Below are positions 1-64,000 of a DNA stretch of 64,000 bases, piece after piece; position 1 is the stretch's first letter, and the number at the start of each line of letters is the position of its first letter. The stretch is taken from contig CAJINV010000005.1 in the NCBI GenBank assembly GCA_905178155.1, forward strand, positions 3,947,556 to 4,011,555. The letters are read 5' to 3'. The notes under the pieces were generated by a model. The model was not told the origin of the DNA. It made no database searches and saw only the letters and a program-made list of their open reading frames with translations. Made by a program: the position numbers and the translations under genes. The DNA is from Amoebophrya sp. A120. Lineage: Eukaryota; Protista; Dinoflagellata.

Positions 1-157
1 GCCGCGAAATCGTTGGCGAATTGCGGGTAGTGGCTGTTGCGGAGTTAATTTTTGGGACTGCATTTTGATTTGTTTTCGTCTGCTACTGCAAAACTTTAAA
101 TGATTATTAGGATACAGTAGTACTTTTCTGAAAGAACTAGGGCAAAAAAAATATTTT

Positions 158-13089: not shown

Positions 13090-15807
13090 TCACTCCTGCC
13101 TCGTCTTCTCTTTTTTTTCAAACAACATGATCGTACAAAAATGCATCCTGGCAAGCTCCAGAGTGGATGAAAAGGATATAGTACCTGGCTGCATCTGGTG
13201 CGGTGTATTAGATTGCCCGTTGCTGTTTTGCAATACGGGGGGCGGGGTTCCGCTCTGAATCATGGCCATCAGCTGGTTGACCAAGGACTGTTGAGAGCTA
13301 CCGAGATTTGTTGGGTGGCTGCTATTCGGATCCATCCCACAACTCCCGTTCTGCTGCGCGCCCTTGCTGCCGGCAACGCAGCCCGGCACTCCGGTCCCCG
13401 GGGGTTGCTGCGGGCCACAGCTTCCCACAAGATTGCTGTTCGACGCGGTGGTAGACAGGGACACCAGCGGTGGGGGCGTCAGCACCGTGGACAAATGATT
13501 GTTTCCGCTGGTGTTGTTCATGATCACATTGCTCGGCTGCTGCTGGTGCTGCTGCTGGCCGCCAGTGGCGCAGCCTCCAGCTTGGCCACCGGGGAGCGGC
13601 GCCGGAAACTGCAGCTGGTGGTTCGCAGACGTGTTTTATTGTGAGGAAATATCCCCCCACCCCATATCAAAACGAAGTTTCTGATGCTGGATTTGAGTAC
13701 ACAAATCAGGTTTGTCTTGCAGAAAGTGCTTGGCGGCAATTTCTGAGCCTGTTTGGGTATGCAGAGGGGTAGTAATTACGCATGGAAAACAGGTTTGCAG
13801 TAGCCGAAAGCGCATGACAGATTGGCTTTGGAATGCGCCACATGGCTCCCATTGCCCTATAGGCAAGACAAAGACGATTTGTGACCACAAACCAGCATCA
13901 CAAGTTTTCATTTTGATATGGGGAGGGGGGATTTTTCCTCACAATATGTTTGTCGTCGACGTGGTTCCGTTGAAAGTCGACGACCTGGTTGACAACTGAA
14001 AAACCGGAGTCGAAGCGGACACGTGGTCCTGCTGCATCTGCTGCTGCATTTGGAGTTGATCCAAAAGCTGCAGCGGCAGCTGCTGGCTCTGCTCCACCTG
14101 CAGTGCGTTAGAAGTACTCTGCGAATGCTGCTGACCTGCCAGCTGCTGCTGCGAAGCAGAAGTGACCAAGCCGCTCGTCGTCCCACTTGATGAGGGGAGA
14201 GGAGGAGTGGCGGCGGTCCCCGCGGTGATTAGATTCGCGGTACTAGAGGTATTATTGCTCGCTCCACCACCTCCCCCACAGCCACTGAAAAGCTGCATGC
14301 TGCTCGGGCCGACGAGCTGCTCCAAGAAGGTCGGAAGCGAGGCTGCATGATTCGGTTGCCCGAGTTGTGGCTGTTGCAAGGACTGCGATGAACTGGGGAT
14401 GTTGGACAGGAGATTCATGCTTGTTCCCGGTTGCGCTTGCGCAGATGAGTTGTGCGGCTGAGGAAATAAGTTGAAGCTATCTTGTTGTACTCCCTGTTGC
14501 GGCGCCGGTTGCGAGGACAAAAGGTGATGCTGGAAAAGTTGCTGCCCAACGCCGGGCCCTCCTCCGAGAGGCTGGTCAAGAAAGGCAGGCAACGTGGGGG
14601 GTGGAGTATTGGAATGCACCACCGGCTGCGGTGGCGCGCCGGGGACCACCTGCTGTGAGGCTCCGTTCAATGACCCAACTCCCTGGATGCTGCTGCCATT
14701 CAAGAACCCTTGCTCCAACAGGAGCGGAGACTGTTGTTGTAACAGAGGCGGAAGATGATGCTGCTGGTTGTTTTGTTGATTTTGCGCGTGCATCTGCGGC
14801 GCCCCGGACGACGCGCCTTGCAGCTGCTGTAGGATTTGGTCTTGGTACACTTGCCGCGACAAGATCTCGGTCTGTAGCTGTTGCTTGAAAGAATCAAGTT
14901 CTTCGCGCGAGCGAAAGTTCATCGACATCAACAGTTCCGGAGGAATGGCGCCGCTCCCGGGATGACCGCCTGAAGACCCCGTTGCAGGAGCCAACTGGGA
15001 GACGCTGTTTTGCCCGACGAGATTTTCGAGGATTTGATTGGACCCCCCGAGGCTCCCGCCGGTCAAGTTGGAGAGCTGCTGCCGCAGTTGGTTCCCGGTC
15101 AGTTGCTGGAGCGACGCCTGCGAAAACTGGTTGGGCGCGGTCTGATCGAGAACGAAAAAGTTACCGCTTGATCCGCCGTCGCCAACTTCGGGCTGCGAAA
15201 GCTGCCCAACCATATTATGGCTGTGCTGCTGCATCGCATGCAATTGGGATGTGTTCCCGCTGTGGCCCCCTGGTAAGACCAGCTCTGGTTGCTGCTGCAG
15301 CTGCATCACCTCTCGATAAAGGTGCTCGGGGGAAGGCTCCACGGGCCAGGTCAAATTTTGCTGGTTCAGGTGCTGTGGCGGGCCGGATTGATGAGAGCTT
15401 GACTGCGGTTGAGGAGGCAGGTGGACAAACGGGTCTCCATGTGGTCCATGGTTTATGTTTTGTTGCTGCGGTAAAAATCCCGCCGCCCCGATCAGGTTGT
15501 CGTTGTAATTACTGTTCTGGAGGTTCATGTTGTCCACCATAGGATCAAAGAACTCAGTCTGGTGGAGCTGGTTAAAACTTCCATGGTGGTCGCCCATGCT
15601 GTGAGGACCGAGGGAATGGTTGTGGTTGTGGTACTTGCGACCTCCCTTGTTGCGCATTGGAATATCGTCATCGATGCGGAAGGGCGCGAGGCTCCGTACC
15701 TGATTTTTTGATGACCCTTGTACTTCTTTTTGTTCGAAAAAAAAAGAATGGTTCTGGGCACAATTGCAACTGGTTTGCGAACGTGGAAACAAAGGCAAAG
15801 CAGTCAC
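13090..15807 (-). CDS. Q/G/S/P-rich low-complexity protein region (possibly the C-terminal part of the CSD gene)
   Basis: ORFs 13939-15807 and 13090-13527 join in frame (TSTTN|TSANHQLQ) after removal of introner 13637-13946. Confidence 0.6.
13637..13946. mobile_element. Introner family C
   Basis: TIR TATTGTGAGGAAATATCCCCCCACCCCATATCAAAA and its reverse complement; TSD TGTTT (13632-36, 13947-51). Confidence 0.92.
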
Positions 15808-15955
15808 AGCTACTGAAATTCCATGATGCAGCTTATGTCTATGCGATTACATTTTTGAAATTGTACCGGCTTCGGCGGCGGCGGCAATGGCGGAGGACGA
15901 TCGGCCATAGAAACGTCGTGAGAAGCATGCACATGATGACCTGAATGAAAAATTA

Positions 15956-22990: not shown

Positions 22991-25413
22991 CTAGAAGGAT
23001 TCAGACCGGTTGTAATATCGCCAGTAGCAGTCTTCGAGCACCGCGGTCCACACCCCAACCGTGCCCCAGTTGATGCCACGAATCATGCCCTTCCGAAGAC
23101 CGGCCCACAGCGCTCCGCGGAACGGGTCCCGCGCTGCCTCGAGCGCGGCGTTGTAAAGGGAGATGCGGGGCTTGGTGTGCATTAGTGTCTTCACGCGATC
23201 CGGGTAGTTGGTGGCCACTTCCGCAATGGACCCGGTGATAGAACCGGCCATGAACCCAATCCCCATCTTTTGTAACAAGGAAGAGCTACTAGTGCTCGGT
23301 GCGCCGGGCTGTTGCGCTGGCGAGGCCCCCGCTGCGCCCGCGCTAGTCGTGGTAGTAGATGAAGAAGTGCCTCCACCAGCGGCCATGTCCTTGTTCTTCG
23401 CCACTGCCGTCGCGGGGCCGCTGCTAGTCGTGGCGAACATTGGCGCGAGAAGAAACTTGGTGGGGCCGATACTCTGCAGAACGATAGCGTTCGCGAGACT
23501 TTTGCGTACTACGCCGGCAAACACCCCCTTGAAGAAGGCGCGCATGCCGTCAAGCCGGTACAAGTGCTTACTGGCCGCGATGAATGACCGTTCTTGGTGC
23601 GCAATTTGAAAATTCTTCACCACCACTGGAGGCATCGCGAGAAACTCACCCGTGCCTGCAAAGCAAATTGATAATTTGGGTGCATGATACATTCACGTTG
23701 TCTTATCGGCACGAAAAATAGTAATTCATTGTGCTGACCTTCAAGCCGGAGAGTCACTGGGCTGCGAAACAAGAACGGAGTCAATAAGTAAGTACCTGCT
23801 GCCACCATGCTGCCGGCGAATTTCAAGACCTGGCTATCCGTGCGCTTTTTAACTTCCCGCTGGATGTTCTGGTCGATCAGCAAAGTGAGCCCGAATCGCT
23901 GGCCCTGCGCGATCGCGCCCATGGGGAGGCCCAAGACGTAGGTGGACAACGTGTTCGGGGCGCGCGCACCCACCTGCCGCAGTACTTTCGCCACGTCGAG
24001 CCAGTGCGTGGCGGTTGCGCTGGTGATACCCGCGAGACAGCCGGCCGACAATGTCAGTACCTGTTTCGCTTGTTTCGGCAGCGCGGGCCGCACGATTTCG
24101 GAGTCCTCCTTGGTAAGCTTTGTGGCGCCGCTGCGCGTCTTCGCGGTGTACTCAGGGAGCAGCTCTGCTCCCACACCAGGAATCAGAAATGGCGGCTGGT
24201 AGGTGATGGGAAAGGAGGACACTGCGCCCAACCGCTCGAGGAGCGGCACCAGTTGTGGCTCCCTCAGATCGAGGAAGATTTCCGTATCCGCCACGGGCTC
24301 AGTGATCACGCGACTCTTCAAGTCCAACAGCAGCTGGTACCGCTTCTGCTGCTCTGCGCTCGCGCTTTCTGGCAGCGCCACGGGGAACAGGCCGTCGAGG
24401 AGGTCACCTTTGCTTGCCGCGCCTGCGTCGGTGCGTGCTGTCGAGTAAGGAGGAAAAAGGTTCATGTAACTCGCCCAGGAGGAAGTACGTGTAGCCGCCT
24501 GATGTAACTCGCTCGCGTCGCTGGCACTGGGCCTGCTGGACGATGGAAGAGCGTAGTAGACCCAGCTCCGAAACGCGTCGAGCCAGTGTTTACTGGTGCC
24601 CTTAGCAGAAGAAGTGCTGGAAGACGAACCCCCAGCTTGTTCTCTTTCAGCGGAAGAGGACTTTGTGCGCGCCGAACTGAGGTCGAATCCCCGGAGGTAC
24701 TTCTCGATCTTTTCATCCTCATATGACAGTGCACAAACCCCCCTCCTCCTCATTTGTACATGCATGGACAGCAATACAAACACCAACACAGGTGGATGCT
24801 ATGCATGACAAGTTCATACCCTGAGTGTTGTACTGTTTAGACTCCCAAAATTTGTGATGCAGATAGTTCCACAGGGTAGCAACTGGATTTGACACTCTGC
24901 ATGACAAATGAGGGGGAGGGGGAGTTGTGCACTGTGATACCTCACCCGGCTCCTCCTCGATGCAACGCCGGATTTTTCGCAACTGTTTCTGCTGCTTCTC
25001 AAGCAACCGGACGCGGGAGAGCTCCAGGCGGTCGACCTCCTGAAGTAGCAAGTACCTGGTTTTTTTTTCCCATTTTATTTTCATTCAAAAGTCGTCTTGT
25101 GAAATTTCATCCACGCATCTTCATCAGTGTTGGCGCTCGCAGCATGCGCTGAAAGAAGTCGTTTGGTTTCTCGTGACAAAAAATAAACGCAAAAGCGCAT
25201 CAAAATGAAAGTATTATACCGTCTCTTTTCCAGAGCCGTTTCGACGCGATCGCAATGGTCGCGCACCTCATTTCGGGCTTCTTGAATCCTTTTGTTGATC
25301 TCCTGCACACGCACTTCAATGCCCTGCTCCGCGCTTTCAAGCTCGCGCTGCAAGAAGGACTGTAGTCGAAGGATTTCTTTCTCATGCTCAGCCTCGGGTG
25401 CGACGAGAGGCAT
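22991..25413 (-). CDS. Mitochondrial carrier (SLC25) family protein with long N-terminal extension
   Basis: Carrier signature variants THWLDVAKVLRQ, AMPPVVVKNFQ and NYPDRVKTLMH, plus DGMRAFFKG. Upstream coiled-coil exons join in frame across introner 24722-24939 (EEPGE|DEKIEK). The true start is uncertain. Confidence 0.75.
24722..24939. mobile_element. Introner family E
   Basis: TATGACAGTGCACAAACCCCCCTCC ... GGGGAGTTGTGCACTGTGATA; TSD CCTCA. Confidence 0.9.
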
Positions 25414-40533: not shown

Positions 40534-41028
40534 GATGCGCTCACAGACGTTCATATTTGTATTTCATCATCTCTAATGGTGTTCATAGAAAAAGTTGATG
40601 CGTTTATGCTCATCAGGACGAGATCAACGAGTTCATCGTCTAGAACTATCTCGTTTCCGAAGTACGCGGAACTGCAGAACCGCCAGCCACTTCTTCTAAA
40701 TTTCGCATGCAATCCGATTGCACGGTGAGCACATCAGGAATCGGCTTCCGTCTCGTTTCCTAAAGAGGTACCTCGTCGTAAGCGACAGCCGATCGTGCAA
40801 CCTGCGGTACCGGCACTCGTGCAAAATCCACACGGTGCTTGACACAACAGTGCCGATGAGAATAACGCTCGCGTAGCAACGGTTTATCAAAACCCCGGGG
40901 TCAACCTGATGTCGATTTGCGCTTGCTGTCTTCCTTTCGAGATACAAAGACAAACACAATGGCATGTCCGAAGTACAACTCTGAGCTAGAATGGAATGTC
41001 CACTCGCTCCTGCATCTTCCTACCTGAT

Positions 41029-42837: not shown

Positions 42838-43549
42838 TCCCGGTATCTAAATGGGAGACTAGTTTCTCACGCCACCGTCGCCGTGCCACCCGAATGAGAC
42901 AAAAATATATGGAACTTGAGCGGGATCGTCGTTTTTCTTTGTGATCCCTCACTTGCGCGGCGTCTACTACCTTTTACATCGCACTTGACGGAAAGGGAAA
43001 ACACCCACGAAAACGAATGCAATCTGAGGTGAATTCAAGATGAGGGGTATTAGATAAAAAAACGAAAAGGAAAAGACTACGCACAAATACGCAATAGGGA
43101 ATACGAACGAAGGAGGCTCTGCAAGAAGGCCCACCGAGTGAATGAAGAAGGAAGAAAATCCAGTACTATCGCAGAACAACAAAAGAAAAGGCTCTTCTTT
43201 CGAAGCACATTATCAACTATCATGGGTTGTTTTTGTCTCTATATTTCTCTTGTTTTTTTATTGTATTTGTACAACACGGTGTGCAACGACAACATTCAAA
43301 AACAAAGTAAAACAATTCTCGTCTATCACCACATGCGTGGTTGCTAGGAAACCCCTCGTTCATTGAATGTGAATCTAGATCACTTTGTCGAATAGAATTC
43401 AATTTACGATTTTTCTCGTTCATTGTACAAAAAAAAAGCTCAGAGCTCTCCTCGGAAAGATGTTGCTTGTCAAATCAAAGTTTCGTTTCTGAATTCGAAG
43501 TTCGAATATCAGTTTGTCAAATCAAAGTTTCATTTCAGCATCAGACCGC

Positions 43550-46500: not shown

Positions 46501-49500
46501 ACAACCCGGCGCCCCCAACCCGGCTGCGGGAATCTTTCTGGCAGCCCGGACGCTCCAGGGTGGGGCCTAACGCCTCAGGACACCGGCAAAAACTGCCGGG
46601 AGACCGAGTTGGCGCATTCTCGAGCTTCGAGAACGCGGGCAACCGACTTCGTTTCGCGCTACTTTGCTTCGCTTGTGGACGTTAGCAGCCGCGGCACAAA
46701 GTCGATTTTTTGCGGCGTGCCTGGATTTTTTGCGGATTTTTTTCCGATTTTCTTAACATTTTTGAAGTCGGTCCAAATCAGTACTAACCTGTCTGCGATG
46801 GTGGTACGGCGGCTTTTCGCAGGTAGTTGCGTACGATCATCTCGATGGCCAGATCATCAGGCTTTGCTTCGTTTTCTCGGGGCGTCTGATGCTTTTTTGG
46901 TTCCGTCTCAAACCGAAAAAAGTTGGGAACGGGGACGGGAGACAAGCTTTGCTTGTCACGCTCATAGCCAGGTGGCGAGGGTGTGCGGCCCATCTGGCGT
47001 ACTGCCCTGCGGTTTTGCTTCACGTAGTTCATTACTTTCTTCGGGGATGTTGATCCGGCGCTGGGTATTGTTCTCGGGGATCTTATCTTCTCCTCTCCTG
47101 GCGGCGATCTCTCGTCTTCCCGGTTGGTGATTCCAACTCTATTTTCCACCGTCGTGGATAACGTCCGCGAGGTTGTTAAGTTCATCGGGTCGTTTCGCTG
47201 AGCCTCGCCGGACTGCTCGAGAGTCGATAGTGTTGTAGTCGCTTGCAAAGGCATAGGCAGCTGCTGGTGCCCCGCGCGGCTTTGCGAGGAGGCGGACGCG
47301 GTGAGGGTTTGATCCATGGCGCCTGCAGTGCGCGAGGTCGATATTTTTCCACCACCACCGGAGGATATCGTAGCATTTAATGTTCCTGGGACGCGGCTGG
47401 GACTGCTCGTGGTACCTCCAGACGAGATAGAGCCGCCAAATTGTAGTTGTTGAAAGGTGGAACCACTGGTAGTTCCCGCAATGCGGAAGCGTGGCGCCGG
47501 GCGGCAGGGTTTTGCGTAGGGCGATGGCGAACGGTCAGGGGACCGCGACGGCGCGCGGTAGGGGGACGAAACTTCTTTGCCCGCGAACGCCTTGCCTGCG
47601 CGCCAAACCGGGGGCGGGCTTTGGGATCGCTGCACCTCCATAGACCGTTCCCGGAACCCAGCGCGCTCGGCCTCCTTCTCGGCGAGCTTTTTATGGGGGC
47701 GTCAAACTTGTATTTGCCTCAGACCGTAAAAAAATTTCTGCGCGCATTTTTTCGCGGCGGGAAGCTAGTAAACCTGTGCCCGCAAGTGAGGGGCTGACTC
47801 GAGCGCGGTTTGTTTTAGCTAGCTTGTCAGCAGCAGTGCTCTAGTAGGTAAGTGAGTATTGACGCGGAGGAGGGCGGGGCACAGAGGGTTCTTTTGTGGC
47901 TGGCGTTTTCACTTAGAAAGCGCCGGGCGCGCGCAATATTTTGCTCCATTTTCCGGATTGCTTTCTCCGTGCAGCCATTTGCCGCTATGGCCTGGGTTAG
48001 GGTGTGAGGCTGCAGACGCCCCACGAGATGTCTACACAGGCCTTGGCGTCGTCGTCTCTAGCGGGCACCACACGCATATGTTGGCCGCGAAGGCCTTTCC
48101 GGAGGCCCCCCAAAGAGGGAGGGCCGGAGGGGTGCCCGGAACCCTAAAAAAAAGGCTATCGCTTTTTCTTCGAATCACGATGGTGCTACCCCTCCCCAAA
48201 AGGGGTCCCGGAACCCCTCCGGGAAGCCTTTCCGAAAGGCTCTCGGGCTTTTCGCATTTTCAAGAACGAGCCGCAAAGGCAAAAGGCGCGCGCGCCTGCC
48301 GGAAAAAGCGCGCACGGCTGCGCGACATTAGAAACAAGCGGAAACGCAGCCGCGGCCGGTTGCGTTTGCGCCCTTGGCCCCGACCGACCTGCACAGATTG
48401 AGGCCCATTGTCTAGCGGCTGGACTGCAGGAGGACCTGCTGCAGCACCTCCAGGCTGCAGGGGCGCTCCGAGGCAAGTCCGTGGAGCAGCAGCGCCGGAT
48501 AGCTCCGACTTTAGCCACCGAGAAGTGCTGCGAAGAAGCTAGCTAGTTCATTCGGTATGCAATGTAGCGAGAGGCTATATGCGTGCAACATGATGGATAT
48601 CAAATACAAAAAAAGGCGCGCGGAAAATTTTTTACAGCTTGAGGCAAATACAACGTTGACGACCCCATACTTTTGTGGTCCGAAAAACTCTGACAGCATA
48701 TCGTGCCGTACGTCCATCATGGTCCGTGATCCATTCGGATTCAGTCCGTACTCCGCCGCATCCGGGTCTTTCGGAACTGGGAAGGCTTTCTATGAAAGTG
48801 CACAAATCTTCCCTCGTGGTCCGTCATTTGTGATGCACTACACTCCATGTAGTCGTGTAGAGTTCGTTGTCATGCGGAAGGGGAAGCTTCTCTGTTGCTT
48901 CTGTTGCTGTTGCTGTAGTAGAGGCCATGCAAATGATGGGGACGAGGGGGAATTGTGCACTCGCATACTTTCTCGTTGTCGAGGGTGGATGCGAGCTGCT
49001 TCCGCGCGTCGATGCTCATCGACTCCCAGGCCTTCTTCGGCACCGCCGGCCGTATCGAAAACAGGTCGCGCGGTGCCGGCCGGCTCTTGTGCTCCTGGTT
49101 GCGCGGCCGCATCTGGAAGGGGTCCCGCTCCACGTCTATCAGCGCGCGATGAATCTTTTTGAAAGATAGGCATAGACTCAACATTTCTGGGACGCGCAAA
49201 GACAGGTAAAGAGATCCACGATCTCGCAGAACAAGCGACATACTCGAATGCACTTGGAAATTATTATTTTCGGAATGTATCATAGTGACTGACCACTCTA
49301 CTGCGAACTGGAATATGAATCAATGCTGGCAGCTCCAGGTGGAAGCAGAATATTGCGTCTAGTTTTAATATTCTGAGTACAACTAGTTGAGTAAGTACCT
49401 TGTCGTTCGGGTTCAGCGATCCGCGTAGGTTTCGTTTGTAGAAGTAGCTCTCCGTGGCGTTCAGGTCTTTCTCGGTGACACTGTAGCCTACTACCTTCTC

Positions 49501-52500
49501 CGTGGTGTCCAGTTTCTGGAAGTGCATATCGCCCTGCATCATGAGGCGAAAGCAGGCCTGGCAGGCGACGCCCTTCCCGCGCTCGACGACCCGGAAGTCT
49601 CGTTTGCGGTGCATGTCCCGAATGTCTTCGATCATCTTCTCCAGGTCCTCGGCCACTCGGTCGAAGTTCTCGTATGAACTGCAAAAGTATCGTGCTCGTA
49701 GTAATTGCAGTCATGCATGACAGTCCTGGCTTCTTAGCTAATTCAGCATTACAAATGCCTTTTCTCCTTCTGGAAAAATTTGTGATGCTATTTCTACTAG
49801 TACGATACTTTTGCAATGCATATCTCGATCATGGTATCGATGTCGTTCTCCCACGTTTCGTACGTGTTTTCGTACCGGTCGACCGCTGCCTGGGTGTAGT
49901 CCTTACGCTGCTGCTCTAAGTCGATTGCAAGTGCGGCAAACTGTGCAGTTTGGTTTTCATCTATCACAACTCATCTGCGATTTTTTTGGGCATGATCTTC
50001 GCTTGTCTAGACGTGAACTTTTGCTTTCGGAATTGGAGGAGCACTTTCTTAGAACTGGGGATATATAATATAAATATCATGAAACCTAACCAACGTTCTT
50101 GGGGAAAAAGAAAAAGCGTGAAGTGTAACTGAACTGCTACTGCCCCAAATGAAAGGAAGTGCCAACGCAATGATAAACACTGCACCAGCAGAATTGTTTA
50201 AATTCACAGAAACAAACAGATTGTTATCAAGAAGGACCTCCTCTTTTAGTTGCTTATCCCGCTCGATCCATTCTTTGTCTTTTTCCGGAATTTTTACTTC
50301 GTAGATGACGTCGATCTCCAGTTTTAATTCGTCCATTGCTTCGTAGAGAGCTGCCTCCTTGGCCCCGATACTTTCGACCTCTTCCAGAAGCTCTTCGTAG
50401 AGACGCTTGATCTTTACTAGGTAGTTTTCCGCCTTGAGCAGCGGATGAACGATGAGCCACGCTTCCCATCCGTTCTTCAACGCTGCTGCCTTCGACCGGT
50501 TGCGCAAACCAAGCCGGCGCCTAGGAATTTTGCGTGTCAGCGCTTGCGTATGCTCGGGAATTTGATTGAGGAAAGTGAAGAGATTGCAATTGGCTTGTTG
50601 TTCAGCTAACTGAGTAGTGTGTTTACTGGAGATAAGTAAAAAGCTTAGGCTGCATCTGCAACTGCATGCGACATAAGGACCGGCTTTTCTGTACGAGGCA
50701 GAGCAAATAGAAAATTGTTAATACTGGATGAAGGCCGACAGACCGATGGTGATTTTGGTGTTTTCCTTGTGTATGCGGTCGTAAACGATGTAGCGCTCCT
50801 CCATGCGATTGCAGAGGTCGTCGAAGTAGGTGTAGTCCAGTTTTTTGCGCAGCCGCTTGTACCGCTTTTCGTACCGGCAGTACCACTGCCACCGCGTGAA
50901 CAGCAGCCGCTTCCAGTGGCGCGCCTCCTGTTCCCAGAGACTCTCGGCGTAAATCTCGCACGCGTGTTGGTACCGCTCCGCCTTTTTGCGTTTCAGGTTG
51001 ATCCGCCGGGCCAGCGCGTGCAGGAGCGAGGCGCGCTCGTGCCGGGTTTTTAGGAGGAGCTTGTCCAGCCGCCGCCCCTCGGCCTCCAGCTGGGTGTTTT
51101 CGGCCACCTTGTTGTCGATCTTCTCGGTCTATGAACTGCAAAAGTATCGTACTGGTAGTATTGCAATACAAATTGGGTCAGCATGAAAAATGGAGTTTGT
51201 CATGCTGATTTAGCTTGAAGAAGAAACTTGTCTTCCATGACTGCGATTAGTAGCAGTAGGTACGACTACGATGCTTTTGCACAGGATATGGTCCACCTCT
51301 GCACGAATGTCATGGCATACTCGAGCTTATCGTCCCACTTCCCGAGCTCCTCCTCCAAGCGCGCAATCTCCTCCTTTTCCAGTTCGGACTGGGCCTTGTC
51401 CCAGTCGGCTTTGGCCTCCTTTTCGGCCTTCTCCGCCTTCCACGCCTCGTACTCCGCCAACCCGTCCTCAGAAAGATCGGAGGGTGTGCCAAGCCCGCCC
51501 CAGTAGTCGCTGTCTTCCTCGTCCTCCTCGCTGCCCTCTGTTTGATTGTTGTAGTAAAAGAATAGTGCTTAGGGGTGATATTGATCATTTTGGGACCTTC
51601 TTCGGCGCAAAAAAAAAGCCTTGCAGTTGTAATTATGTAAGTAAGCACTTTGCATTCCAAAGAAACGAATCTTCACGAACCCAAGCCTGCTTTACCATCC
51701 TTTCATGAGCGAGGAGCTCGACCTTCGAGAGCAGCACTTCATCTTTTTGCCTACAGAGGAACCAAGAAATGTAGCAGCACTTTCCAACAGATAGTAAGTA
51801 CTAATACCCTCTTCCTCATCTTCCTCCTGATCCAAGACGGATCTGCGGCGGGGCTTTTTCTCTTCGTCTTTCTTTTTCTCGCCGAAGTCTTGCGCCATGG
51901 CGGCCTCCGCGATTTTCTGGATCTCGTCGATCTCGATTTGCCCCTTGGCCATTTTCGGGTCCGTTCGGGCAAAGGTTTTGTCCGTCGCGACCTTCGCGTC
52001 AAAGACCCGGACCGTCTGGCCTATCAAATGCAAAAGTGTCTGGGTCTGGAAGATTGCGAGACTTGTCATGCTTGTCTGGCATGACCAAAAAGTTTGTGAT
52101 GCGTGTCCAAGAAGAGACCCTTTTGCCTGTCATGCAAAAGCGCAGCTTTTCATGCGAAAAACGCAACACAAAGCAGCGCAGACTTTTCTCATGCTTGGCT
52201 GTGCATTACAGAGCATTCACTATTCCCGACGCAGCATTACAATTTTCCAGACCCAGACATTTTTGCATTTGATATGGCCACAGTGGTAGCAAAAGATCCA
52301 GTTCGGACGCGGCAGCATGTGATCGCCCAGCCGACCGCTACCCGCGATGCTCTATCAAAATGAAAAATGCCCCCACCCCCAGCTTGGCAGCATTTGTGTT
52401 GCAAACCTTTCCAACAGAAACATTCCCCGTCTTGCAACTCTCAGCATCACAAATTTTCCATGCTGAATAGGTCAAATTTGTGTTGCGAAGTAGCCCAACA

Positions 52501-53900
52501 GCAGCCTGATCTGGTATGCACAAGGCACCTTGCGCACCCTGATTCTGCATCAGAAACGCTCGCAATCCTTTTATGCAAGACAAAAAGCTTTCATCTGGAA
52601 ACTTTGCATGACAAACTTCTGCATTTTTTCACTGCAATATGGGGGCATTTTTCACTGTAATATGCTCACGTTCATCTTCTTCGCCTGTTTCTGAATTTCC
52701 GCGCGCACCTGTTTGTAGGAGAGTTTGACCTCGACTGCCTTGAAGCTGTAGATCGCCTTTTTGCACTTCACGTTGGTGTATCAAATGTAAAAATGCCTGG
52801 GTCTGGAATAATGCAACTTGTCATGCTAAATCTGAAGCATGCAAAAATCTGTGTTGCGTGATTACCAAAAGTCGTCCAGTTTTGACCAAGTCGGGAGGCG
52901 GTTTCTCATGCAGGCTGGGCATGAGAAAGATCGCACAGAATCTGTCATGCTAGATCCTGCATTCCAGACCTCACGGGTCATGGAAAAGCTGCATGACAAG
53001 TCGCGCACTCTTCCAGACCCAGACATTTTTACATTTGATATGGTGCACTCGATGGCCTGTGGGACGCGCTGCCCGGTGCTTTCCTCCTGCTTCACGGTCT
53101 TTTCGGACTTCTCCTCCTCATACATCGGCGGCATTGCGGCCGGATCTTTTTCCTGCACCGCCTTGGCACGATTGTGTTTGAAGATAGTTCCTGTTATAGT
53201 GGTTTTTCTTTCGATCTAAATTTCAGTTGCATAGATAGTGCTAGCTACAGATAACGAAGATGGATCCGCGGCACATATTTTTACTGTGTCCTCAAGCGGT
53301 CTCTTGTACCAGTTGTAGACAACCACGTGCAACATTTTTAGCTGCGCGAACGGCGACGGCCGGTGAAGGGGTGAGACCATGAGAAAGTCACTTCGATTTT
53401 TCCATGCAGAGTGAGTGTGCAGCCTGCATTCTTCATCACACCCACGCACCGTCTGCGTCTGGAAAGCGCAAAGAAATGATCCTCAAGTGGAATTATAAGG
53501 CATCGTACTAAGCAATAGTGAAGAAAATCCAAAGTACGCATTTGTTTTGCGCTTCGCAGCCTGGTTTCGATCCGGTTCTCTTCTTTCTTGCGCTTCCGGC
53601 GCTCCACCTCCAGCTGCTTTTGCCGCGCATCCTCCTCGCGCTCCCGTTCCGCTGCCGTTGCGGCAGACACCATCCTGCTCGGGGACGAAGCCTAGTAGGC
53701 TGCACAAGCACTCTACTGAAGATCTCGCGCTAGTACTTAGACGACCGCAGACGTTGTTCCTTGGTCCTGTCTATCCTTGCAAACGATCGCATCCTGATGT
53801 GCCACCGCTCGCGCGCGGCCCGAAAACGGAGGTCAGCTTTGTGCTGCCGCCCCCAGCGCGCGTGTTGGGTCTGCCGTGCTCTATTGCTTGTTGTGCACAG
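43550..53900 (-). CDS. Large multi-exon coiled-coil hypothetical protein (one or two genes)
   Basis: E/K/R-rich exons (53500-53900, 51810-52021, 51289-51540, 50718-51129, 50230-50507, 49400-49672, 46789-47690). Frames join across introners (e.g. IDTMIE|NFDRVAED). Ends uncertain. Confidence 0.45.
43870..46710. repeat. Palindromic satellite / foldback-like block
   Basis: Tandem ~21-bp GCACAAAATCGATTTTGCATT at 43870-44500, dispersed AAAATCGATTTT to 46710, TTCCGGAA clusters, and a central inverted repeat 45073-45150/45419-45496. Confidence 0.85.
48791..48967. mobile_element. Introner family E
   Basis: TATGAAAGTGCACAAAT ... AATTGTGCACTCGCATA; TSD CTTTC. Joins DNEK|AFPVP. Confidence 0.88.
49673..49822. 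mobile_element. Introner family D (opposite orientation to 40322)
   Basis: TATGAACTGCAAAAGTATCGT ... ACGATACTTTTGCAATGCATA; TSD TCTCG. Confidence 0.92.
51130..51288. mobile_element. Introner family D
   Basis: TATGAACTGCAAAAGTATCGT ... ACGATGCTTTTGCACAGGATA; TSD CGGTC/TGGTC. Confidence 0.88.
52022..52274. mobile_element. Introner family A
   Basis: TATCAAATGCAAAAGTGTCTGGGTCTGGAA and its reverse complement; TSD TGGCC. Confidence 0.95.
52353..52662. mobile_element. Introner family C2
   Basis: TATCAAAATGAAAAATGCCCCCA ... TGGGGGCATTTTTCACTGTAATA; TSD TGCTC. Confidence 0.9.
52779..53040. mobile_element. Introner family A
   Basis: TATCAAATGTAAAAATGCCTGGGTCTGGAA and its reverse complement; TSD TGGTG. 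Confidence 0.95.
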
Positions 53901-55132: not shown

Positions 55133-58100
55133 TTACTTTTTCGGTGATGGCACCCCCGCTGGAGTACTGGCCTCCTTTTTGGGGCTGTCCAGGTTTTCCT
55201 TCGAGCTTGTCACGTTGTTTCTGCTCCGACTGGTGCCCTTGAAAAGCCCTCCGAGGAAGCCTACTCGCTTCTGATCCTGCTCGCTTTCGTCGCTTTCCTC
55301 GCTGCTGTGCTCGTTGTAAAAGTCAATCTTCTCGTTGGGGTCTGAGATCGGAACGAGAGCAAACCTGGTCAGAGGAGGACAGGTTGTTTGGTAGTTTTAT
55401 GTTTGAAATCTACTGCAATGGTCCAGCTGGTGGCCGAAAGTCGGCTTCGGCAATAAAGTCGACACAAAGAAATTATGATCCTCGCCGCGGAGAGCCACCT
55501 CATCTATCATCATCATGTCATGTTCCTGTGAACAAGAGAATATCAAATGCAAATATGTCTGGGTCTGGAAGGGTGTAACTTGCAATGCTGCATTTGGATT
55601 CTAAAAAAAATCTGTGTTGCAGGAATAGCAAAAGAGGTGCGTTTTTTGCTACGCGGAGGGAGTAATTCTCATGCAGTTGTATGGGCATCAGAAAGCCGTC
55701 ACAATATCTGTGACGCTAGGGCATGCATCACAGACATCGCCGGTGATGCAAAATCTGCATGACAAACTTCCAGACCCAGACATATTTGCAATGCATAAAG
55801 AATCAATCGAATTTACATTCCAAACTCGATCTGCAAGTCGACCATCTGTTTTTCGTCCCAGGCACGTTTCATGCGATCCGCTTCTGATTCGTACTCGCCC
55901 TTCGCCAGCGCTGCCGGAGCCGAAGAGTTCGCACTCGGGGACCCGCCGCCGGGGGTCGTCGGCGGTATGGCGCCGGGTGTGCTGGCCCCCGGTGTCGTTG
56001 CTCCGCCGGGGGAGCTGCTGCCCGCGGGCGTGGCGGCACCACTTGGCTGACTTCCAAATATCCTGGGGAAAAACGTACTACCCAATTCATAATTTCAGTA
56101 TATTGTTGTGTTTGTGACGCAGATCGTCATCCGGCTCGCCCGTATGTTCATGAGAGCCATTTTCTCAGTCATGTGATTTGGGAACTTCTTGTGACGCTCG
56201 AACTAGCACAAGCCAGACATGGCTTCGTGCTGCAGCTGCGCTGGTCACCATCAAGCACGTGATCGCAACTAAAAGAATTGTGGTCATACAGCGAGAGTGG
56301 CTCGCGCTCGCAATCGCAAAACTAAATGATTTCCCATCATGATTATCATGTACTCACGAGGACTGGGTATGTCTTTGCACAGGATATCTCCGTCTTCTGG
56401 CTTCGCACGCCGGAAGGGACTCAGGACGTTCATCAACTTCCTCGCGCCGCGAACCACCCCGGTAGCGGCTCCCTTGAGGGCACCCGACACCATTCCCAGA
56501 TCCTCGTCTGCGTCTCGCTTTCGCTTCAGCAGGGTCACGGTCTGCTTAAACTCGGGCGAAAGAATCTCCTTCGGTGTAATGGAGCCCGAAGCATAATGCC
56601 TGACGCATGCAATTATTCATCTTCATTCAAGCACCATACATATTCATTGACATAATTGCGTTCTCAACAAAGTGCCAACAGAACCCGGTGATAGAGCACA
56701 GTAGGCACGCCTGGCTTCTACTTCTACAATTAATAGCACAACAAAAGACGAGCGAAAGTAGCATATCTTTGCAACGGGGGTAAGTAGGATTTTTCCTACG
56801 TCATACATTGCCACAGTAGTACAATCAACTTACTAGATTACCGACGTTTGTGGAACGACGGATGCATTACTAGTACTGCGCAACAGAAATAACAATAAGT
56901 TTAAGTTCTTATACTTTTTCCGCCCATTGACGTAGACTTTTATTTCGATCTTCAGATTCTGGGGCTGCGTGATGAGGAAGTGACAACCGAAATTGAAGAC
57001 CGTGTCGTAGCTGGGTTTCCTCTTCAGAATGTCCTTGATAATCTCGGGCGGGTAGTGCGCAAAACCGGCAATGTCGTGGATGGGCATGCTTGCGAAATGC
57101 TCATTGCCAATGCTCAGGTTTTCGACCATGGCCTGCATCGCGTGTGGTACCGCGTCGTCCACGAGCGCCGGCACCACCTTCGCAGAACCGCCCCCAGATT
57201 TTTTCACGTCCTTCGGGTCCTCTGCCTCAAAAGTGACGTAGACTTTGTCCTTTTCAAACTTCTTCGGGATGCCTCGCACAGCGACTAGTCTGCACTGGAA
57301 CAGCATCACGTTCTGGTAGTCCTCCAGTGGCAAGCGGACGGGGGTCTTCGAGGGGGACTCCTTCGCAACTTTGCTTCCCTTTTGCAACACAAACATCCCC
57401 CCGGTCGGGACTCTTCCAGTTGTTTGGCATGAAAAGTTGTCCTCTGACTCATGCACACATAAGAGCGGCTTTTCTTCCCTTGCGCATACAAGAGCATGTA
57501 TGGCCAGAAGATGTCAGTGAAAAAAGAGACAGGCAAAAACTTGCGCAGCTTTAGACGGGTGAAGCCGCAAGTGCGTAGTGCATTTCTTGTGTCCGCATGG
57601 TGGAATCGCCTGCATGCTATAAAAATTTCTAGTCCTGCTCTTACACGGACCAAAATGTCATGAAACACACGGCCGTCCGGGGGCAGACATTGCATTGCGT
57701 AGGGATTCTTCAATTCCGGTCGTGGCAGCGCGTCAACGGTTGTGATCGGCTCGAGCTTCAGCGTTTCTAACGAGACATCCAGGTGCCCTCCCCCTTCTAT
57801 CCTGAGTAAAAACATCCCCACACCAGAGTCAAGATGGGGATTTTGCAACACAAACCTAGAACTTTTGGGGGTCACGCATCACAAGTTGCAGTCCGTAGTG
57901 TAGTGCAGGTTCGCAAGGCCAGCTGCATCAGAAATCCATCTGCTCATCCTGTTTACAGCATTACAAATTCCAAAACACGACTAAAAATGCCTCTCCTGGC
58001 GAAGCGCATTACAAATGTTCCTGGCATTGCAAATCTGCATGACAACTCTGGTGTGGGGACGTTTTTACTCAGGATACCTTCCTCTTCGTCTTCCTGCCGT

Positions 58101-61100
58101 AGCGGAATCGTGACCGCGCCGTCCTGCGCCGCTATTTCGCCGACGGGAATGCGGAAGTGCCCGAGTTGGTATGCATTGCAAATATGTCTGCGTCTGGAAA
58201 CATGTAACTTCTGATGCGCATTTTAGACCAGAGAGAGATCTGTCATGCATGGACCGCAAAAGTTGCTCATTTCTTGTCACCAAAAGAGGGAACTTGTCAT
58301 GTGGATTAGGCATCCCGTAACCTTCTCGAAACCTGTGATGCTAGGGCTTCCTTGCTAGACCTTCTGCGTCATGCAAAAACAGCATGACACTTTCCAGACC
58401 CAGACATATTTGTATTTGATAGCTGGTCATCGGAGTCAATATCGGAGTCGAACAACTCCAACGAGATATCGCCAGGAAAAATGCCCCCCCCCGAACTTGG
58501 CAGCATTTGTATTGCAAACCTTTCCAAATGAAACATTCGCCCTCTTGCATCTATCAGCGTCACAGATTTCCGATCGTGAATAGCAAAAATTTGTATTGCA
58601 AAAGACCCCAGCAAGAGCGGCGCTTGTCATGCAAGCGATGCGATATACGCTTCGACTCTGCATCAGAAAGATTCATACTCCTTTCATGCATGACAAAAAG
58701 TTTTCATTTGGAAACTTCGCATCACAAATCATTGCAACTTTGGGGGTGGGGGCAGTTTTCCTTGTAATACGACAACAGCTGCCGCTTGTTGAACATGAAA
58801 AAGTCGTAGATCTGGTCTTGCCACACCGGATTCACCGTGTATTGCAACGAAAAATCCCCCCTCCCCATATTAAAAAGGTATCCTTCGGAAAATTTGTGAT
58901 GCAGATTTGTGGTCACAAATCATTTTTGTTTTGCAAGAAGGCAAGCGCTGGGAGATGAGCCGCATTATGGGCGCGATTTGTCATGCTGGTTGGCCTACAG
59001 GGCAGGCGTTTCCCATGCTATACAGCTAGACCCGTGCGCTCCTAAACAGCTTAACTATCTGGCCACAATTCCTTACAGCAAGACAGACCTCATTTGTGTA
59101 CGCAAATCCAGCATCAGAAGTTTCGCTTTGATATGGGGAGGGGGGATTTTTCCTTTTGATACCGTGTGCTTGATCACTTTGCTTCGAAACTGCCGCGCGC
59201 CAACGCGGACGATGGCGTAGGGGTCACTCGTCGCGGCGCCGAAGAAATTAAAGTCCTTCGCGAGCAGGTTCTTCCCTTTGTGCAGTTGAAACCGCAACAC
59301 CGCTTCTGGCCGTGGGAAGGAAAGCCGCGTCATGTCGATCTAGTGCGTTTGCTTTCAACATTGCGGTGGTGAGAGAGTGCAGCTCACTTCATCACTTCTT
59401 GTTTTGCATGAAGAATATATAACGACAAACACGTCGCAGCTCGTTCTAATTTCGTACTACCTCAAATAAAAACTGCATAGGCCGAGAAGTTGAAGTGGAT
59501 TCTCGGTGTGTATCATACTGCTTCACTTTGCACTTAGCACAAACTAGAGTGCCGCGTGCTAACCTAAAACCAACGCACTATACCTCCGTCGGATCCGCAA
59601 CGGGGACGAAAATGCGATTTGGGAGGACCAGGGAATCCGTGATAGCGTTCCGGATGATGGACCGGATTGTGCCAGCCAGTACGGTATCGATTGCAAACAT
59701 GTCTGGAGAGTAATAGATACACAATGGTGCTGCGTGATGCTCCCCCTACGTGACGCTGTGGAAAGAAAGTCTTCTTCTCGCATCATCATCGTAAGTAATT
59801 ATCATCGTTAGTTGCCGCAACAAATACCCTCGCGGCGTATCACGACCTGGCAAGCGTTTTTACCCCTGGAACGAACAGGGCCTCTCTACTCAAAGAAACG
59901 GGACATTCGAATGTGCCTTTGAAAATAACTACTGATGTATAAATGTAATCCCGGCACAGTTCCAGTCCCAGACATATTTGCAGTTGATACACGGGCATGT
60001 CAATCAGGTTCGCAGCTCCGGTGAAGTCGACGTCCACTGTCGGTGGATTGATCATGAAGATCTGCAACCGATTATCAGCTGCAAATCTGTTTGTGTTCTT
60101 TCGGGAACCAGCAGCTAAGCACAGGGAAGTCGAATGTTGCTGCGTCTTCTTCTGCTCATGTAGTAGACTTCTGCAGCACAATCTTTCCTCTTTTGTCATG
60201 ACAAAGCATGGGTAGTGTTTAGTATTTGAGCACCTATCCGACATAACTGTTGCATGCGCAGGATGGAACCACTTGTTTCCTGCGCGATGTCACGACAAAT
60301 GAAGGCATCTTCACGCAGTCGTAGTATTCGCGGTCATGCACTGAAACCAAGACAGTTCTGGTTGTAGTCATCGATGTAAACAGGAAGAGTTTAGCTCCCA
60401 ATGGGTCTGCTCTGACGCCGTCCCAACAGACACAAACAACCATGCACAGAGTAGCCACCAACCACCGGCATTGTCTCCATCAATGGACGCAAAACCAGAG
60501 AAACGTATCCCAAAGAAAGCTGCTAGCATGATTTGTTTGTGCTTCTACGTATACAAAACAAGTAAGTGCGCACAAGCATCAGAGGAAAAAGTCGTCCATT
60601 GTCGAGCGTTGGTTCAACGCATGCGAAAGCACAGACATTGTTACAGAAGTTGTCTCTATTTCTATATGTTGGCTTGACAGGACGAGCGCAAAGTCATCAA
60701 ACCTGATGCGGTAGCTACTTTCCGGAGGATACGACGGTTCCTTCGATCACAAGCTTCTTCAGACCTGTGGCGGGAGTGGGTTCAGCGTTTTATTAGAAAG
60801 TATCGGCATGATGGCGGCGTCAATGTCTATCCACCTCCAAAATTGTATAAGCAAACATGAACGGATTTCGGAAACTCGAAACTCATGAAGGAGCTCAACG
60901 AGCTCTTCTAGCTTGAAAAGTGCATCTGCAGCAACCTTTTATTGATAGTCATATCTACAATTTCATCGCAAGACTCACGAATAATTCAATTTCGTGAATA
61001 ATTCAAATTGAATAACTCAATTTCATGAATAATTCAAATTGAATAATTCAATTTCATATCAAGTCTCAATCTCAGTCTCAGTCTGAATCTTAAATCTTAC

Positions 61101-64000
61101 CTCAGTCTCAAATCTTATTCGAATCTCCAATCTTATTATCAAATCTTATCTCAATCTCAAATCTTAAAAAATCTTAAATCTATCTCAGAATCATAGCCAT
61201 CTATCAAATCTTATCTCAAAAATTTTTCATACAGATCGGGGCGCAGTATCATCATATCGAAAGGGCGGGGGGGGCGCGGGGGAGTGACGTAGGGGGTCAG
61301 TCGGATCCGCGCGATCGCGTGTCACTTTCTTACTGAAATCCCTAAGGAGAAAAAGCTTCAGCTGATCGCGCGCACGGAGACATCGCGGGCAGCCGACGGA
61401 GACGGAAGGCGGCAACCGCAGCCACGGACGCTGCACCTGGAAGGCGTGCAGCGATGGCGCAGATGGATGCATCCATCAATACCTTCCCAGCATTCTACTA
61501 GAAAACCCATGCCCCGGGTAGCCAGAATAGCAGTGCTAAACACAGCAACTCGGGAAAAAAAAACAAATTCCCAATACATTTCCACTATCCCAATGAACAC
61601 CCTCCCGCGACCCTACTAGAAGATCCTTGCCCCGGGTAGCCTGAAGAGCCGTGCTAAGCACAACAACCCGAGAAGCGCTTCAGCTCTACCACCCCTTCCC
61701 GATAGCTTCCCAATACCTACCCACTATCCTTCTAGGCAAACCTTTCCCCGGGTAGCCCGAAGAGTTTTGCTAACGCGGGAAGAAACCCCGGAAAATCGAA
61801 GAGAAATCAGCTGCCTTGCGATTCTTGACAGCTGGAAATGCCCCGAGGCGTCTCCGCCCGCAAATCTATCCATCTGGCAACACCTTGGGGCGCCTTGCCC
61901 TGGAATCCCAGCTACCAATGCGCCGCGGATGCCTTTTCAAAGTGTTCCCCACAGCTGGATTCCAAGCTAGAAATCGAAAGCCGTCTTCTACTACAAATCG
62001 AGCTGCCAACACTTTGAAAAGGTCGGGCGGAAAAGCGCTGAAAAAGCCCTCTCGATGCCGTCCCATCTGGAAGGATTTCCCTCGAAAAGGCGTTTCCAGC
62101 AAGCTGGATTTCCATTGCCGCGGCGTCTCCAGCTGGATACTCTTCGAAGCGGCGCCCTCGAAGGGTTTCCAGCAGGAGGCGCGTTGCTTGCGGGTGCCTC
62201 TTTGTTTAAGTAATGCACTGCCTCCCTGCTGGATTTCCTCCCGGCTAGAAAAAAACGCGCCTCCATCTGGGTTTCCCGCTAGGAATGCTCTGAAAAGGCG
62301 TCCCCGGCTCCATTTCACGCTAGAAATACTCTGCAAAGACACGGCCGGCTGAATTTCTTCCAGCCGGGGGCGCTTTGGCGATGCCTCTCCCGCTGGATTT
62401 CGTTCTGGGAACGCGCTGGCGATGCCTTTCCGCCTGGATCTCTAGCCGGAAACACGCTGCCGCTGCCTTTCCGGCTGTGTTTCCTTTCAGCTAGAAAGGC
62501 GCTGAGACGGCATTGCTAGCTGGATTCCCTGCTGGACACACACCGGGGCGGCGTCGCTAGCTGGCTTTCTAGCTAGAAACGCCCTGAGACGGCGTCGCTA
62601 CGTGGGTTTCCAGCTAGAAACGCACTGAGACGGCGTCGCTTGCTAGATTTCCAACCAGAAACGCACTGCGAAGGCGTCTCTAGCCGCGTTTCCGGCTCGA
62701 CATGCTTTGAAAAGGCAACCACTAGGCCGCGGGGGGATGCGGCGCGAGGCGCAGCAGTGTTGTTCCCCGGTGATGCGCAAAGCGTGCGCGTCCCGCAGCG
62801 GGGGGTGAACTTTGTGAAAAATGCTCCTTCTAGCGCAAGTTTGCGATGTCACACCGAGCGGGCGAAGCTGTTCGAGTCTCGTTCTTGAACTACATTGATT
62901 TGCCTAGAGCTAGACAACATACGTTGGTGAAACTCAAAAAACAACATCATGGTGTAAAAAAGTATGCTCTCCATACCAAGCTTCATTTTCAACACTCTCA
63001 TGGAAATATCGAGGTTCGGCTTCCACGATATGAAGATGTCGATTTCGAACCCCTTCAGGTCCTGCTTGTCCTTCTTGTACGCGTGCACCGGCCCAAGTTC
63101 TGGTGCCTCGTCTATCGTAAGGGAAAATCCCCCCTCCCCATATTGAAAAGGTATGTCTCCGAAAATTTGCGTTGCTGATTTGAGGTCACAAATCACATCT
63201 GTCTTGCAAGAAGGCATCTCCACAAGCTCCGCAGCATTGTGCAGGCGGTTTGTGATGCTGATGGGCCTACAGCACGGACGTTCCTCGTGCTAGACGCCTA
63301 GGCCAAAACCTCTCTACTTAGGCTTAGCATGGGCCTGCATTTCTCTCCAGCAAGACAGATCTGATTTGTGTACGCAAATCCTGCATCAGAAACTTCGTTT
63401 TGATATGGGGAGGGGGGATTTTTCCTTTTGATATCGTCCCCAAGATAAAAGCTGGTAATTTTGATTCCGTTCAGCGGCACCGGAAGCGAGGCCTGCTATC
63501 AACTGTAAAAATGTCTGGGTCTGGAAGATTGGGGGAGTTTGTCATGCAAATTTTACATGACCTGCGATGTCGGTGATGCATGCTTTAGCATTACAGGTTT
63601 TGTGCAGGATTTCTCATGCGTATACTGCATGAGAAATGCCTTCTCAGAATAGCAAAAATCTGAGTGCCGATTGCTGGTCATGCAATCAAGGCTTTTGTAT
63701 CATCGAAAGTTAGCATCACAAATTCCATTCTTTCCAGACCCAGACACTTTTGTATTTGATACCTGCAGCGTGGGCTCGATCTCGTCCTTTAGCAACTTGA
63801 GCACCGCTTTGTTTATGTACGGCCAGAGCGCCTTCATTGTCAGATTCAACCATTGCAGTCCCTCGCCCGCGGCGACCACCTTGCCGCCACCTAGATGCGA
63901 AGCACGGCTTCCCGAGACGTGCATGTGCGAGTCTCGCATCTGCGGAGGAGTTCCCCCCTTGTCCGGGCTGTCGGTACTAGCGTTTATATCCTGAGTAAAA
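55133..64000 (-). CDS. Extended synaptotagmin-like protein (SMP + C2 domains), 5' end beyond the window
   Basis: EGLQWLNLTMKALWPYI, FYLGD|EAPELG, LVLRPLMETMPVVGG|LQIFMINPPTVDVDFTGAANLIDMP, LVLPNRI, and C2 motifs NLLAKDFN..SDPYAIV..SKVIKHT|VNPVW..LELFDSDIDSDDQL. Confidence 0.88.
55541..55797. mobile_element. Introner family A nested in a GT-AG intron
   Basis: TATCAAATGCAAATATGTCTGGGTCTGGAA ... CAGACATATTTGCAATGCATA; TSD GAGAA/AAGAA. Confidence 0.88.
56059..56386. mobile_element. Eroded introner-type intron
   Basis: TATCCTG...CAGGATA ends. Removal plus 5 nt joins EDG-E-SQPSG; the TSD is no longer similar. Confidence 0.55.
57798..58076. mobile_element. Introner family B
   Basis: TATCCTGAGTAAAAACATCCCCACACCAGAGT and its reverse complement; TSD CCTTC; 279 bp, same length as the 29946 copy. 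Confidence 0.95.
58170..58421. mobile_element. Introner family A
   Basis: TATGCATTGCAAATATGTCTGCGTCTGGAAA ... TTTCCAGACCCAGACATATTTGTATTTGATA; TSD GTTGG/GCTGG. Confidence 0.9.
58467..58769. mobile_element. Introner family C2
   Basis: TATCGCCAGGAAAAATGCCCCC ... GGGGGCAGTTTTCCTTGTAATA; TSD CGAGA/CGACA. Confidence 0.9.
58840..59161. mobile_element. Introner family C
   Basis: AAAAATCCCCCCTCCCCATAT TIR core; TSD CCGTG. Confidence 0.92.
59685..59989. mobile_element. Introner family A (diverged)
   Basis: TATCGATTGCAAACATGTCTGG ... CCAGACATATTTGCAGTTGATA; TSD TACGG/CACGG. Confidence 0.85.
60073..60453. mobile_element. Eroded introner-type intron
   Basis: Coding strand TAC...GATA plus 5 nt; joins VVGG|LQIF. 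Confidence 0.55.
60506..60731. mobile_element. Partly eroded introner-type intron
   Basis: TATCC...GGATA with flanks AAACG/CGACG; joins EGTV-A-LVLRP. Confidence 0.7.
60980..61225. repeat. AT-rich low-complexity repeats in intron
   Basis: GAATAATTCAA(A)TT units followed by AATCTT/ATCTCA units. Confidence 0.7.
61490..62700. repeat. GC-rich degenerate tandem repeats in intron
   Basis: Three ~118-bp units containing CCCCGGGTAGCC..GTGCTAA, then CAGCTGGA/AGCTAGAAACGC.CTGAGACGGCGTCGCT units. Confidence 0.7.
63113..63433. mobile_element. Introner family C
   Basis: TATCGTAAGGGAAAATCCCCCCTCCCCATAT ... ATATGGGGAGGGGGGATTTTTCCTTTTGATA; TSD TCGTC. Confidence 0.93.
63497..63761. mobile_element. Introner family A
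   Basis: TATCAACTGTAAAAATGTCTGGGTCTGGAA and its reverse complement; TSD CCTGC. Joins EPTLQ|ASLPVP. Confidence 0.93.
63987..64000. mobile_element. Left end of a family B introner (truncated by the window)
   Basis: TATCCTGAGTAAAA is identical to the family B terminus. Confidence 0.7.

Follow-up and report, generated by a model that had tools for sequence, protein, structure and literature searches.

Introners of the marine parasitic dinoflagellate Amoebophrya sp. A120 have been described as introns of many families with non-canonical splice sites, together with a hairpin model (Farhat et al. 2021, PMC7789003). According to the text of that paper, their inverted repeats start with TAT, followed by seven variable bases and an A-run, and are bordered by direct repeats of 3–5 nt; a cognate autonomous transposase was not found in A120. 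U2, U4, U5, U6 and nearly all spliceosomal proteins are listed there as present, U1 and the minor-spliceosome snRNAs, with U11, U12, U4atac and U6atac, as absent. The paper poses as an open question by what means most A120 introns are taken out when neither GT-AG ends nor U1 are available. Another Amoebophrya is described as having mostly GT-AG introns, with U1 present (PMC12005148).

Introners of Polarella glacialis (several classes) and Aureococcus anophagefferens give rise to GT/GC/GA-type introns in either orientation (10.1101/2020.10.14.339549; PMC10228655), and the published method of one introner survey already allowed for opposite-orientation copies. Fritillaria borealis carries MITE-derived, non-GT-AG introns with inverted ends that a largely conserved U2 spliceosome removes (PMC11282704; PMC13326754). 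The nonconventional introns of euglenids resemble the A120 elements in having an end-to-end stem, duplication-like repeats, no polypyrimidine tract and a likely MITE origin (text of PMC11282704).

The window, i.e., the whole 64,000-nt stretch of A120 DNA analysed here, was scanned for TAT...ATA inverted ends with a flanking repeat in which at least 4 of 5 duplication bases match. The scan returned 19 elements, comprising five that a sequence-only reading of this DNA had named, at the same coordinates, and 14 others, each flanked by a 5-bp duplication that is perfect or carries one mismatch; in the five, the duplication is perfect and 21–23 of the first 25 bases are complementary. Two degenerate copies, 56059 and 57381 (elements are named by their first position), were added to the window set through RNA joints (Table 1). 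A motif search with family E provided a comparison sample biased towards that family: 154 loci, all from one related assembly (JACKZZ01 contigs, 17 of 64 parts scanned), holding 291 elements. The 25 longest of the 209 matches between these loci and the window are element copies at 73–93% identity, and three triplet shuffles of the loci gave 0, 0 and 0 hits under the same element rule.

The terminal inverted repeats (TIRs) start with TAT and pair over ~30 nt. In a search that did not use TAT as a criterion, TAT stood at both ends in 225 of 239 pairs, and the duplication matches at 5 of 5 bases in 243 of the 291 comparison elements, detection itself needing at least 4 of 5. TAT is followed by about seven variable bases and then the A-run, whose positions 11–13 are the best kept after TAT (A in 119–130 of 136 copies predicted to be exonic). 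Together with direct repeats at the borders, repeated occurrence, non-canonical borders and removal from RNA, these are the features of the published introners, found in the same organism with the same TAT and A-run ends, 5-bp repeat and non-canonical sites (PMC7789003); TIRs, a duplication of constant length, short size and multiple copies are those of MITEs. The window elements are the published A120 introners, that is, introns made of miniature inverted-repeat transposons.

In the window and the comparison loci, element ends are modular, the same few starts (TATCAAAT, TATGCATT, TATCCTGT, TATGAACT) being mixed on a single family body, and TIR positions 4–7 pair in only 46–77% of 311 elements, compared with 95–96% for positions 11–13. 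The element 47692–48669, which is removed exactly, contains internal palindromes and is a candidate larger or nested member.

Table 1. Host genes and introners of the window, with the strand of the host and the evidence for removal or placement.
Positions	Feature	Host strand	Evidence or remark
39125..42837	Host gene of 40322 (P0001, 936 aa, no Pfam family)	minus	
43721..53691	Host gene, 1082-codon frame after splicing	minus	7 introners, both family D orientations
55136..63987	Host gene, SMP + C2 domains	minus	both family E orientations and two family C copies
13637..13946	Family C introner, inverted copy	minus (frame)	duplication TGTTT; frame evidence only
24722..24939	Introner	minus (frame)	frame restored by removal; frame evidence only
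29946..30224	Introner	minus (frame)	464-codon frame restored by removal; frame evidence only
40322..40471	Family D introner	minus	skipped by deposited protein P0001
47692..48669	978-nt TAT...ATA element, removed as intron		joint 47686->48670
48791..48967	Introner		joint 48785->48968
49673..49822	Family D introner, inverted vs 40322 and 51130		joint 49667->49823, 155 nt skipped, runs X1 + X4
51130..51288	Family D introner, same gene as 49673, opposite orientation		joint 51125->51290, 164 nt skipped; imperfect duplication
52022..52274	Introner, E-like ends		joint 52016->52275
52353..52662	Introner, family and orientation as 58467		joint 52346->52662
52779..53040	Family E introner, orientation A		joint 52773->53041
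55541..55797	Family E element, passenger in canonical GT-AG intron 55365-55816		spliced-contig joints
56059..56386	Degenerate introner without intact duplication		joint 56054->56388; only -1/+4 or -2/+3 possible
57381..57701	Degenerate introner, sense ends TAC...AAA, duplication lost		pieces abut at 57376 and 57703; -1/+4
57798..58076	Introner, family and orientation as 29946		piece-length arithmetic
58170..58421	Family E introner, orientation A		piece-length arithmetic and interior scores
58467..58769	Introner		piece-length arithmetic
58840..59161	Family C introner in C2-domain exons of SMP/C2 gene	minus	length arithmetic
59685..59989	Introner, imperfect duplication		piece end 59680; in place in DNA contig 59137-60969, run X5
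63113..63433	Family C introner, SMP part of the same SMP/C2 gene as 58840		exactly 58 nt between flanking pieces, contig X1
63497..63761	Family E introner, orientation B (inverted), same gene as 58170		piece-length arithmetic and interior scores

The sequence-only reading had claimed that the family D copy 49673–49822 is the reverse complement of 40322–40471, and that in family C 13637 is inverted relative to 58840 and 63113. Any copy resembles its own reverse complement because of the inverted ends; therefore, interiors alone were compared, with the ends trimmed. The family D claim was confirmed, 40322 and 49673 scoring 96 as reverse complements and −29 on the same strand (maximum of 300 shuffles, −5), and 51130 has the orientation of 40322, opposite to 49673. 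In family C, of which 13637 is a diverged subfamily, 13637 and 58840 score 140 inverted against 40 on the same strand at trim 45, and 21 against −29 in the core left at trim 90 (shuffle maximum −21). The inversion relative to 63113 is weaker when measured directly (67 vs 43 at trim 45, falling inside the shuffle range at trim 90) and follows from the link through 58840 and the family network, in which 0 of 135 edges are inconsistent, so that the family C claim stands directly for 58840 and indirectly for 63113. Stronger cases had escaped that reading: 51130 and 49673 are opposed within one gene, and in family E 52779 and 58170 (as well as 55541) share one orientation that is opposite to that of 63497.

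Both orientations are removed from RNA. In run X1, one contig of 7607 nt skips seven minus-strand GT-AG introns and eight introners among the 15 of 30 joints listed, as do matching X4 contigs, and one contig skips both 49673 and 51130, which are oppositely oriented. Once a further GT-AG intron, deduced from length, is allowed for, the pieces add up to the 6275 nt of the contig, and a single 1082-codon frame holds both elements. In the upstream part, the joint table is filled with mis-joins between DNA repeats and joints were taken from the arithmetic of the pieces: 1176 nt are missing from 57792–59161, equal to 57798, 58170, 58467 and 58840, each plus 5 nt, and 63113 and 63497 must both be removed because exactly 58 nt lie between 63107 and 63762. 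Within single genes, the removed length is that of the element plus 5 nt in either orientation, and family E is removed both ways round inside the gene with SMP and C2 domains. Orientation-independent removal of window introners is supported for family D within one contig and for family E within one gene. Since orientation is irrelevant for removal, no strand-specific signal is needed in the interior of the element, and all needed signal lies within the mirrored ~30 nt. X1 and X4 are guessed to be RNA and consist of contigs from one study, so they demonstrate removal and not its efficiency; the raw RNA runs X9 and X10 place 3 and 0 reads on the window.

The claim that all host genes lie on the minus strand and that all frames are restored holds with evidence that differs between copies. 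The spliced contigs that skip 49673, 58840 and 63113 also skip minus-strand GT-AG introns. For 40322, the deposited A120 protein P0001 (99% identical over exon 41032–42846) maps exon by exon and skips the element at residue 626. The host of 13637 is indicated by its frame, which runs for 813 minus-strand codons upon removal and contains two in-frame stops if the element is retained; protein searches with this frame returned nothing. Pfam searches on 10 segments named C2 and SMP as the only families; in the gene carrying them, the small exons that lie between 59680 and 62975, 155 nt in total, were placed only in part.

The exact cut is hidden at most sites because a perfect duplication masks it, which leaves four informative sites. 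In the RNA across 51130 and 59685, base five of the downstream duplication copy is retained, excluding a 0/+5 register. The other two sites are degenerate copies whose termini were assigned by likeness to the end consensus: 56059 is compatible with −1/+4 or −2/+3 only, whereas at 57381, with no duplication left, the joint is unique and −1/+4 is the sole fit. All four informative joints agree with cuts placed, on the transcript, 1 nt ahead of TAT and 4 nt beyond ATA (N-TAT...ATA-NNNN), a register whose polarity is set by the transcript, not by the element. The splice position relative to the hairpin is called variable in the text of PMC7789003, whereas the window copies fit this one register with both orientations removed. 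The nine commonest non-canonical motifs of A120 in Table S4 of the same paper all have T as their second base; the −1/+4 register yields all nine (26 of 136 copies) and other registers 0–11 of 136, the motifs themselves depending on the cut position chosen by the authors' aligner. Coding scores computed for 35 imperfect duplications did not separate the registers. In strain A25, introners are described as starting with TTA and two purines, with TT-NN as top motifs (PMC7789003); judging from that text, A25 ends would also place U at +2, resembling a GTRAG donor with +1 changed.

A codon model sorted the 291 comparison elements into 136 exonic copies with an assigned strand, 102 that were unclear, 40 that were noncoding and 13 lying at edges; the 136 are predictions of this model only, the two strands being the same in 109 of 120 pairs from one locus. 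Counted against the host strand, orientation divides as 24/27, 7/11, 8/6, 4/3, 2/3 and 4/4 in the six largest families, and smaller families have 0–4 calls each, one of them 3/0. By these predicted strands, the larger families appear to be near 1:1, with no orientation bias. The sequence-only reading had proposed such a count genome-wide; the count given here covers the predicted-exonic copies of the related assembly. It differs from the one-orientation bias reported for introner classes 6, 8 and 10 in a preprint (10.1101/2020.10.14.339549).

In the same copies, the base at +1 of the −1/+4 register is G in 42, A in 36, T in 29 and C in 29, and none of the duplication positions departs from background. 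GT/GC-AG ends can be formed in 10 of the 110 copies with a perfect duplication, compared with 8 of 110 on the antisense strand. From these predicted-exonic copies we infer that the +1 base and the last two bases are probably unconstrained. Polarella and Aureococcus introners are likewise inverted-repeat DNA transposons with duplications that form introns in either orientation, but according to the papers cited above their GT/GC/GA and AG sites are supplied by the duplication or by the element itself, whereas A120 needs no dinucleotide. The pyrimidine/purine junctions of euglenids and their CAG/CTG at +4..6 (PMC11282704) are not seen here either, a purine standing at +1 in 78 of 136 introners against a background of 56%; the end-to-end stem is shared, by predicted folds. 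A purine before TAT, considered as a GT/AT-like donor, was rejected on the same count, although 18 of 20 window copies have such a purine on the sense strand (p = 0.001), an excess in which the window is unlike the larger set.

Spliceosomes normally prefer certain bases at the two ends of an intron, first and last. Against the involvement of one, the introners show no G/A at +1 and no AG, lack the GT/GC...AG ends of U2 introns, and have no fixed splice dinucleotide, unlike U2/U12 introns. The 5′ site consensus of U12 introns is RTATCCTT, which the introners do not match: +1 is unbiased, and C is present at +5 in 90 and at +6 in 41 of 136 copies. No common branch motif was found in the last 70 nt of 9 copies, YTRAY occurring in 5 of the 9 at unrelated positions. 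The earlier description of these introns as atypical for U2/U12 agrees with the lack of a fixed dinucleotide; as to orientation, it overlooks that two orientations are known in spliceosomal introners. Orientation alone is no argument against the spliceosome, because Polarella and Aureococcus introners work either way. Either-orientation introners had reportedly also been described by Huff et al. in 2016, as cited in a later preprint (10.1101/2020.10.14.339549) and review (PMC10228655).

Our best reading, held with moderate confidence, is that a relaxed U2-type spliceosome, aided by the stem and reading U at +2 and A at +3, removes these introns. Such a spliceosome would take out introners either way round, U and A at +2/+3 being the bases read and the 3′ cut sitting at a fixed distance past the mirrored end. 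Because the inverted ends pair over ~30 nt, the 3′ end has the same ATA and a U-run 11–15 nt from the end in both orientations. The earlier claim that removal does not depend on strand-specific signals holds for the element interior and goes too far at the 3′ end, where branch-point or U-tract signals may act. Both ends being read alike, either orientation would offer a 5′ N-UAU and a 3′ U-run followed by AUA-NNNN, and the stem probably brings the two sites together, substituting for recognition by U1 and U2AF. The mirrored ends account for orientation independence whichever machinery acts. The U2, U4, U5 and U6 listed for A120 (PMC7789003) speak for a spliceosome. U at +2 and A at +3 hold in the −1/+4 register, partly by construction since detection used TAT; among the 11 host canonical introns listed, GTA starts 9 and GTAT 4. 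At the first two TIR positions, changes lie on the 3′ side of the transcript in 6 of 7 strict exonic calls (p = 0.125) and in 10 of 12 of all best strand calls (p = 0.04), a small, post hoc asymmetry confined to predicted copies. Fritillaria is a precedent that supports the relaxed-spliceosome explanation, while euglenids are a precedent for a stem-reading nuclease; Fritillaria prefers AG-AC/AG-AT and keeps U1, whereas A120 shows N-T...NN and reportedly lacks U1 (PMC11282704; PMC13326754; PMC7789003). The same 11 GT-AG introns have mostly A-rich 3′ ends and donors GTA(C/T/A), and neither a clear polypyrimidine tract nor a shared branch motif was found in them.

Tentatively, A120 might instead possess a second, non-spliceosomal pathway, in which a nuclease reads the inverted-end stem of any TAT...ATA insertion and cuts at the fixed 1-nt/4-nt stagger, a ligase then rejoining the exons, much as has been proposed for the nonconventional introns of euglenids; this comes near to what the sequence-only reading suggested. 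Stems join the ends in both orientations in predicted folds (z −5.4, −3.0, −12.9 and −7.2), the flanks appear unconstrained and the families near 1:1, and copies that have lost the duplication keep the same register; no U1 was found for A120 in PMC7789003, and euglenid introns leave as circles (PMC11282704). The folding scores follow from the TIRs, however, and are explicable by transposition alone. Selection on RNA pairing was not detected: G-U pairs on the transcribed strand are no commoner than A-C (140 vs 143), and both arms carry private changes at the same rate (72 in 127 and 75 in 129 arms), comparisons that have low power where stems are long. Variants at position 2 pair A with C or with A on the 3′ side and are thus mismatches, not wobble pairs. 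Moreover, 57381 is cut in register despite 15 of 30 terminal pairs and mismatched ends. The pair counts and this copy speak against the hairpin as the determinant of removal, one of the two alternatives (symmetric ends or hairpin) that the sequence-only reading had offered. If the second pathway does exist, each transposon insertion would be silent, at any site and in either orientation, which would account for unselected intron gains by the tens of thousands.

The absence of a pairing-selection signal agrees with another, improbable reading, in which the spliceosome applies ordinary branch chemistry, the 3′ arm is the linear signal (the U-run and a branch A in ATA, with candidates 5 or 7 nt before the cut) and the hairpin is a by-product of transposition. 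The conserved A-run of the TIR would supply a 3′ U-run in either orientation, but neither A of the terminal ATA is invariant among copies predicted to be exonic (ATG, ATC and GTA occur), the U-run is buried in the predicted stem, and the host canonical introns have A-rich 3′ ends. It is very improbable that the skipped forms are DNA empty-site alleles, or come from a strain without the insertions, and are not products of splicing. The guessed nature and single-study origin of X1 and X4 would permit this, and a clean empty site has the identical sequence wherever the duplication is perfect; yet the same contigs skip GT-AG introns with 0 other letters in the listed exon pieces, products at imperfect duplications take bases from both copies, and the DNA-like run X5 holds the elements in place, crossing element ends and the whole of 59685.

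Since the elements, their hairpin and their unusual splicing have been published before, and introners that work either way round are known from other organisms, the present results sharpen that picture and are not a discovery. Element orientation is not discussed in the passages of PMC7789003 consulted, where the word refers to genes and lariats are not mentioned, and a literature search covering few subscription papers and no figures found no paper on the orientation, register or excised form of A120 introners. These two details, orientation and register, are absent from the literature searched; they narrow the question of mechanism and make it testable: N-UAU...AUA-NNNN predicts the exact ends of the excised RNA. 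With no constraint on site or orientation, nearly every exonic insertion would survive as an intron, which would differ from the site-limited introners of Polarella and Aureococcus.

Several features of the host genes deserve mention in their own right. The model of P0001 has a 259-nt gap (40503–40761) with neither GT-AG nor recognisable TAT...ATA ends, which is either an odd intron or a misplaced model boundary. A single spliced contig (43277–63987) spans two head-to-tail genes and the ~1.4 kb between their frames (55136 to 53691); a contig cannot prove a single transcript, but its unbroken course suggests read-through or overlapping untranslated ends. The 3039-nt GT-AG intron at 43750–46788 carries a 21/36-nt tandem array (43864–44424) and nested palindromes (45052–45512), and parts of it are matched, with a few differences, by an RNA-type contig, which may reflect expression of a related copy at another place. 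Short tandem arrays also lie between SMP/C2 exons at 60979–61181 (14–31 nt) and 62272–62684 (41 nt), and they recur elsewhere in the DNA run.
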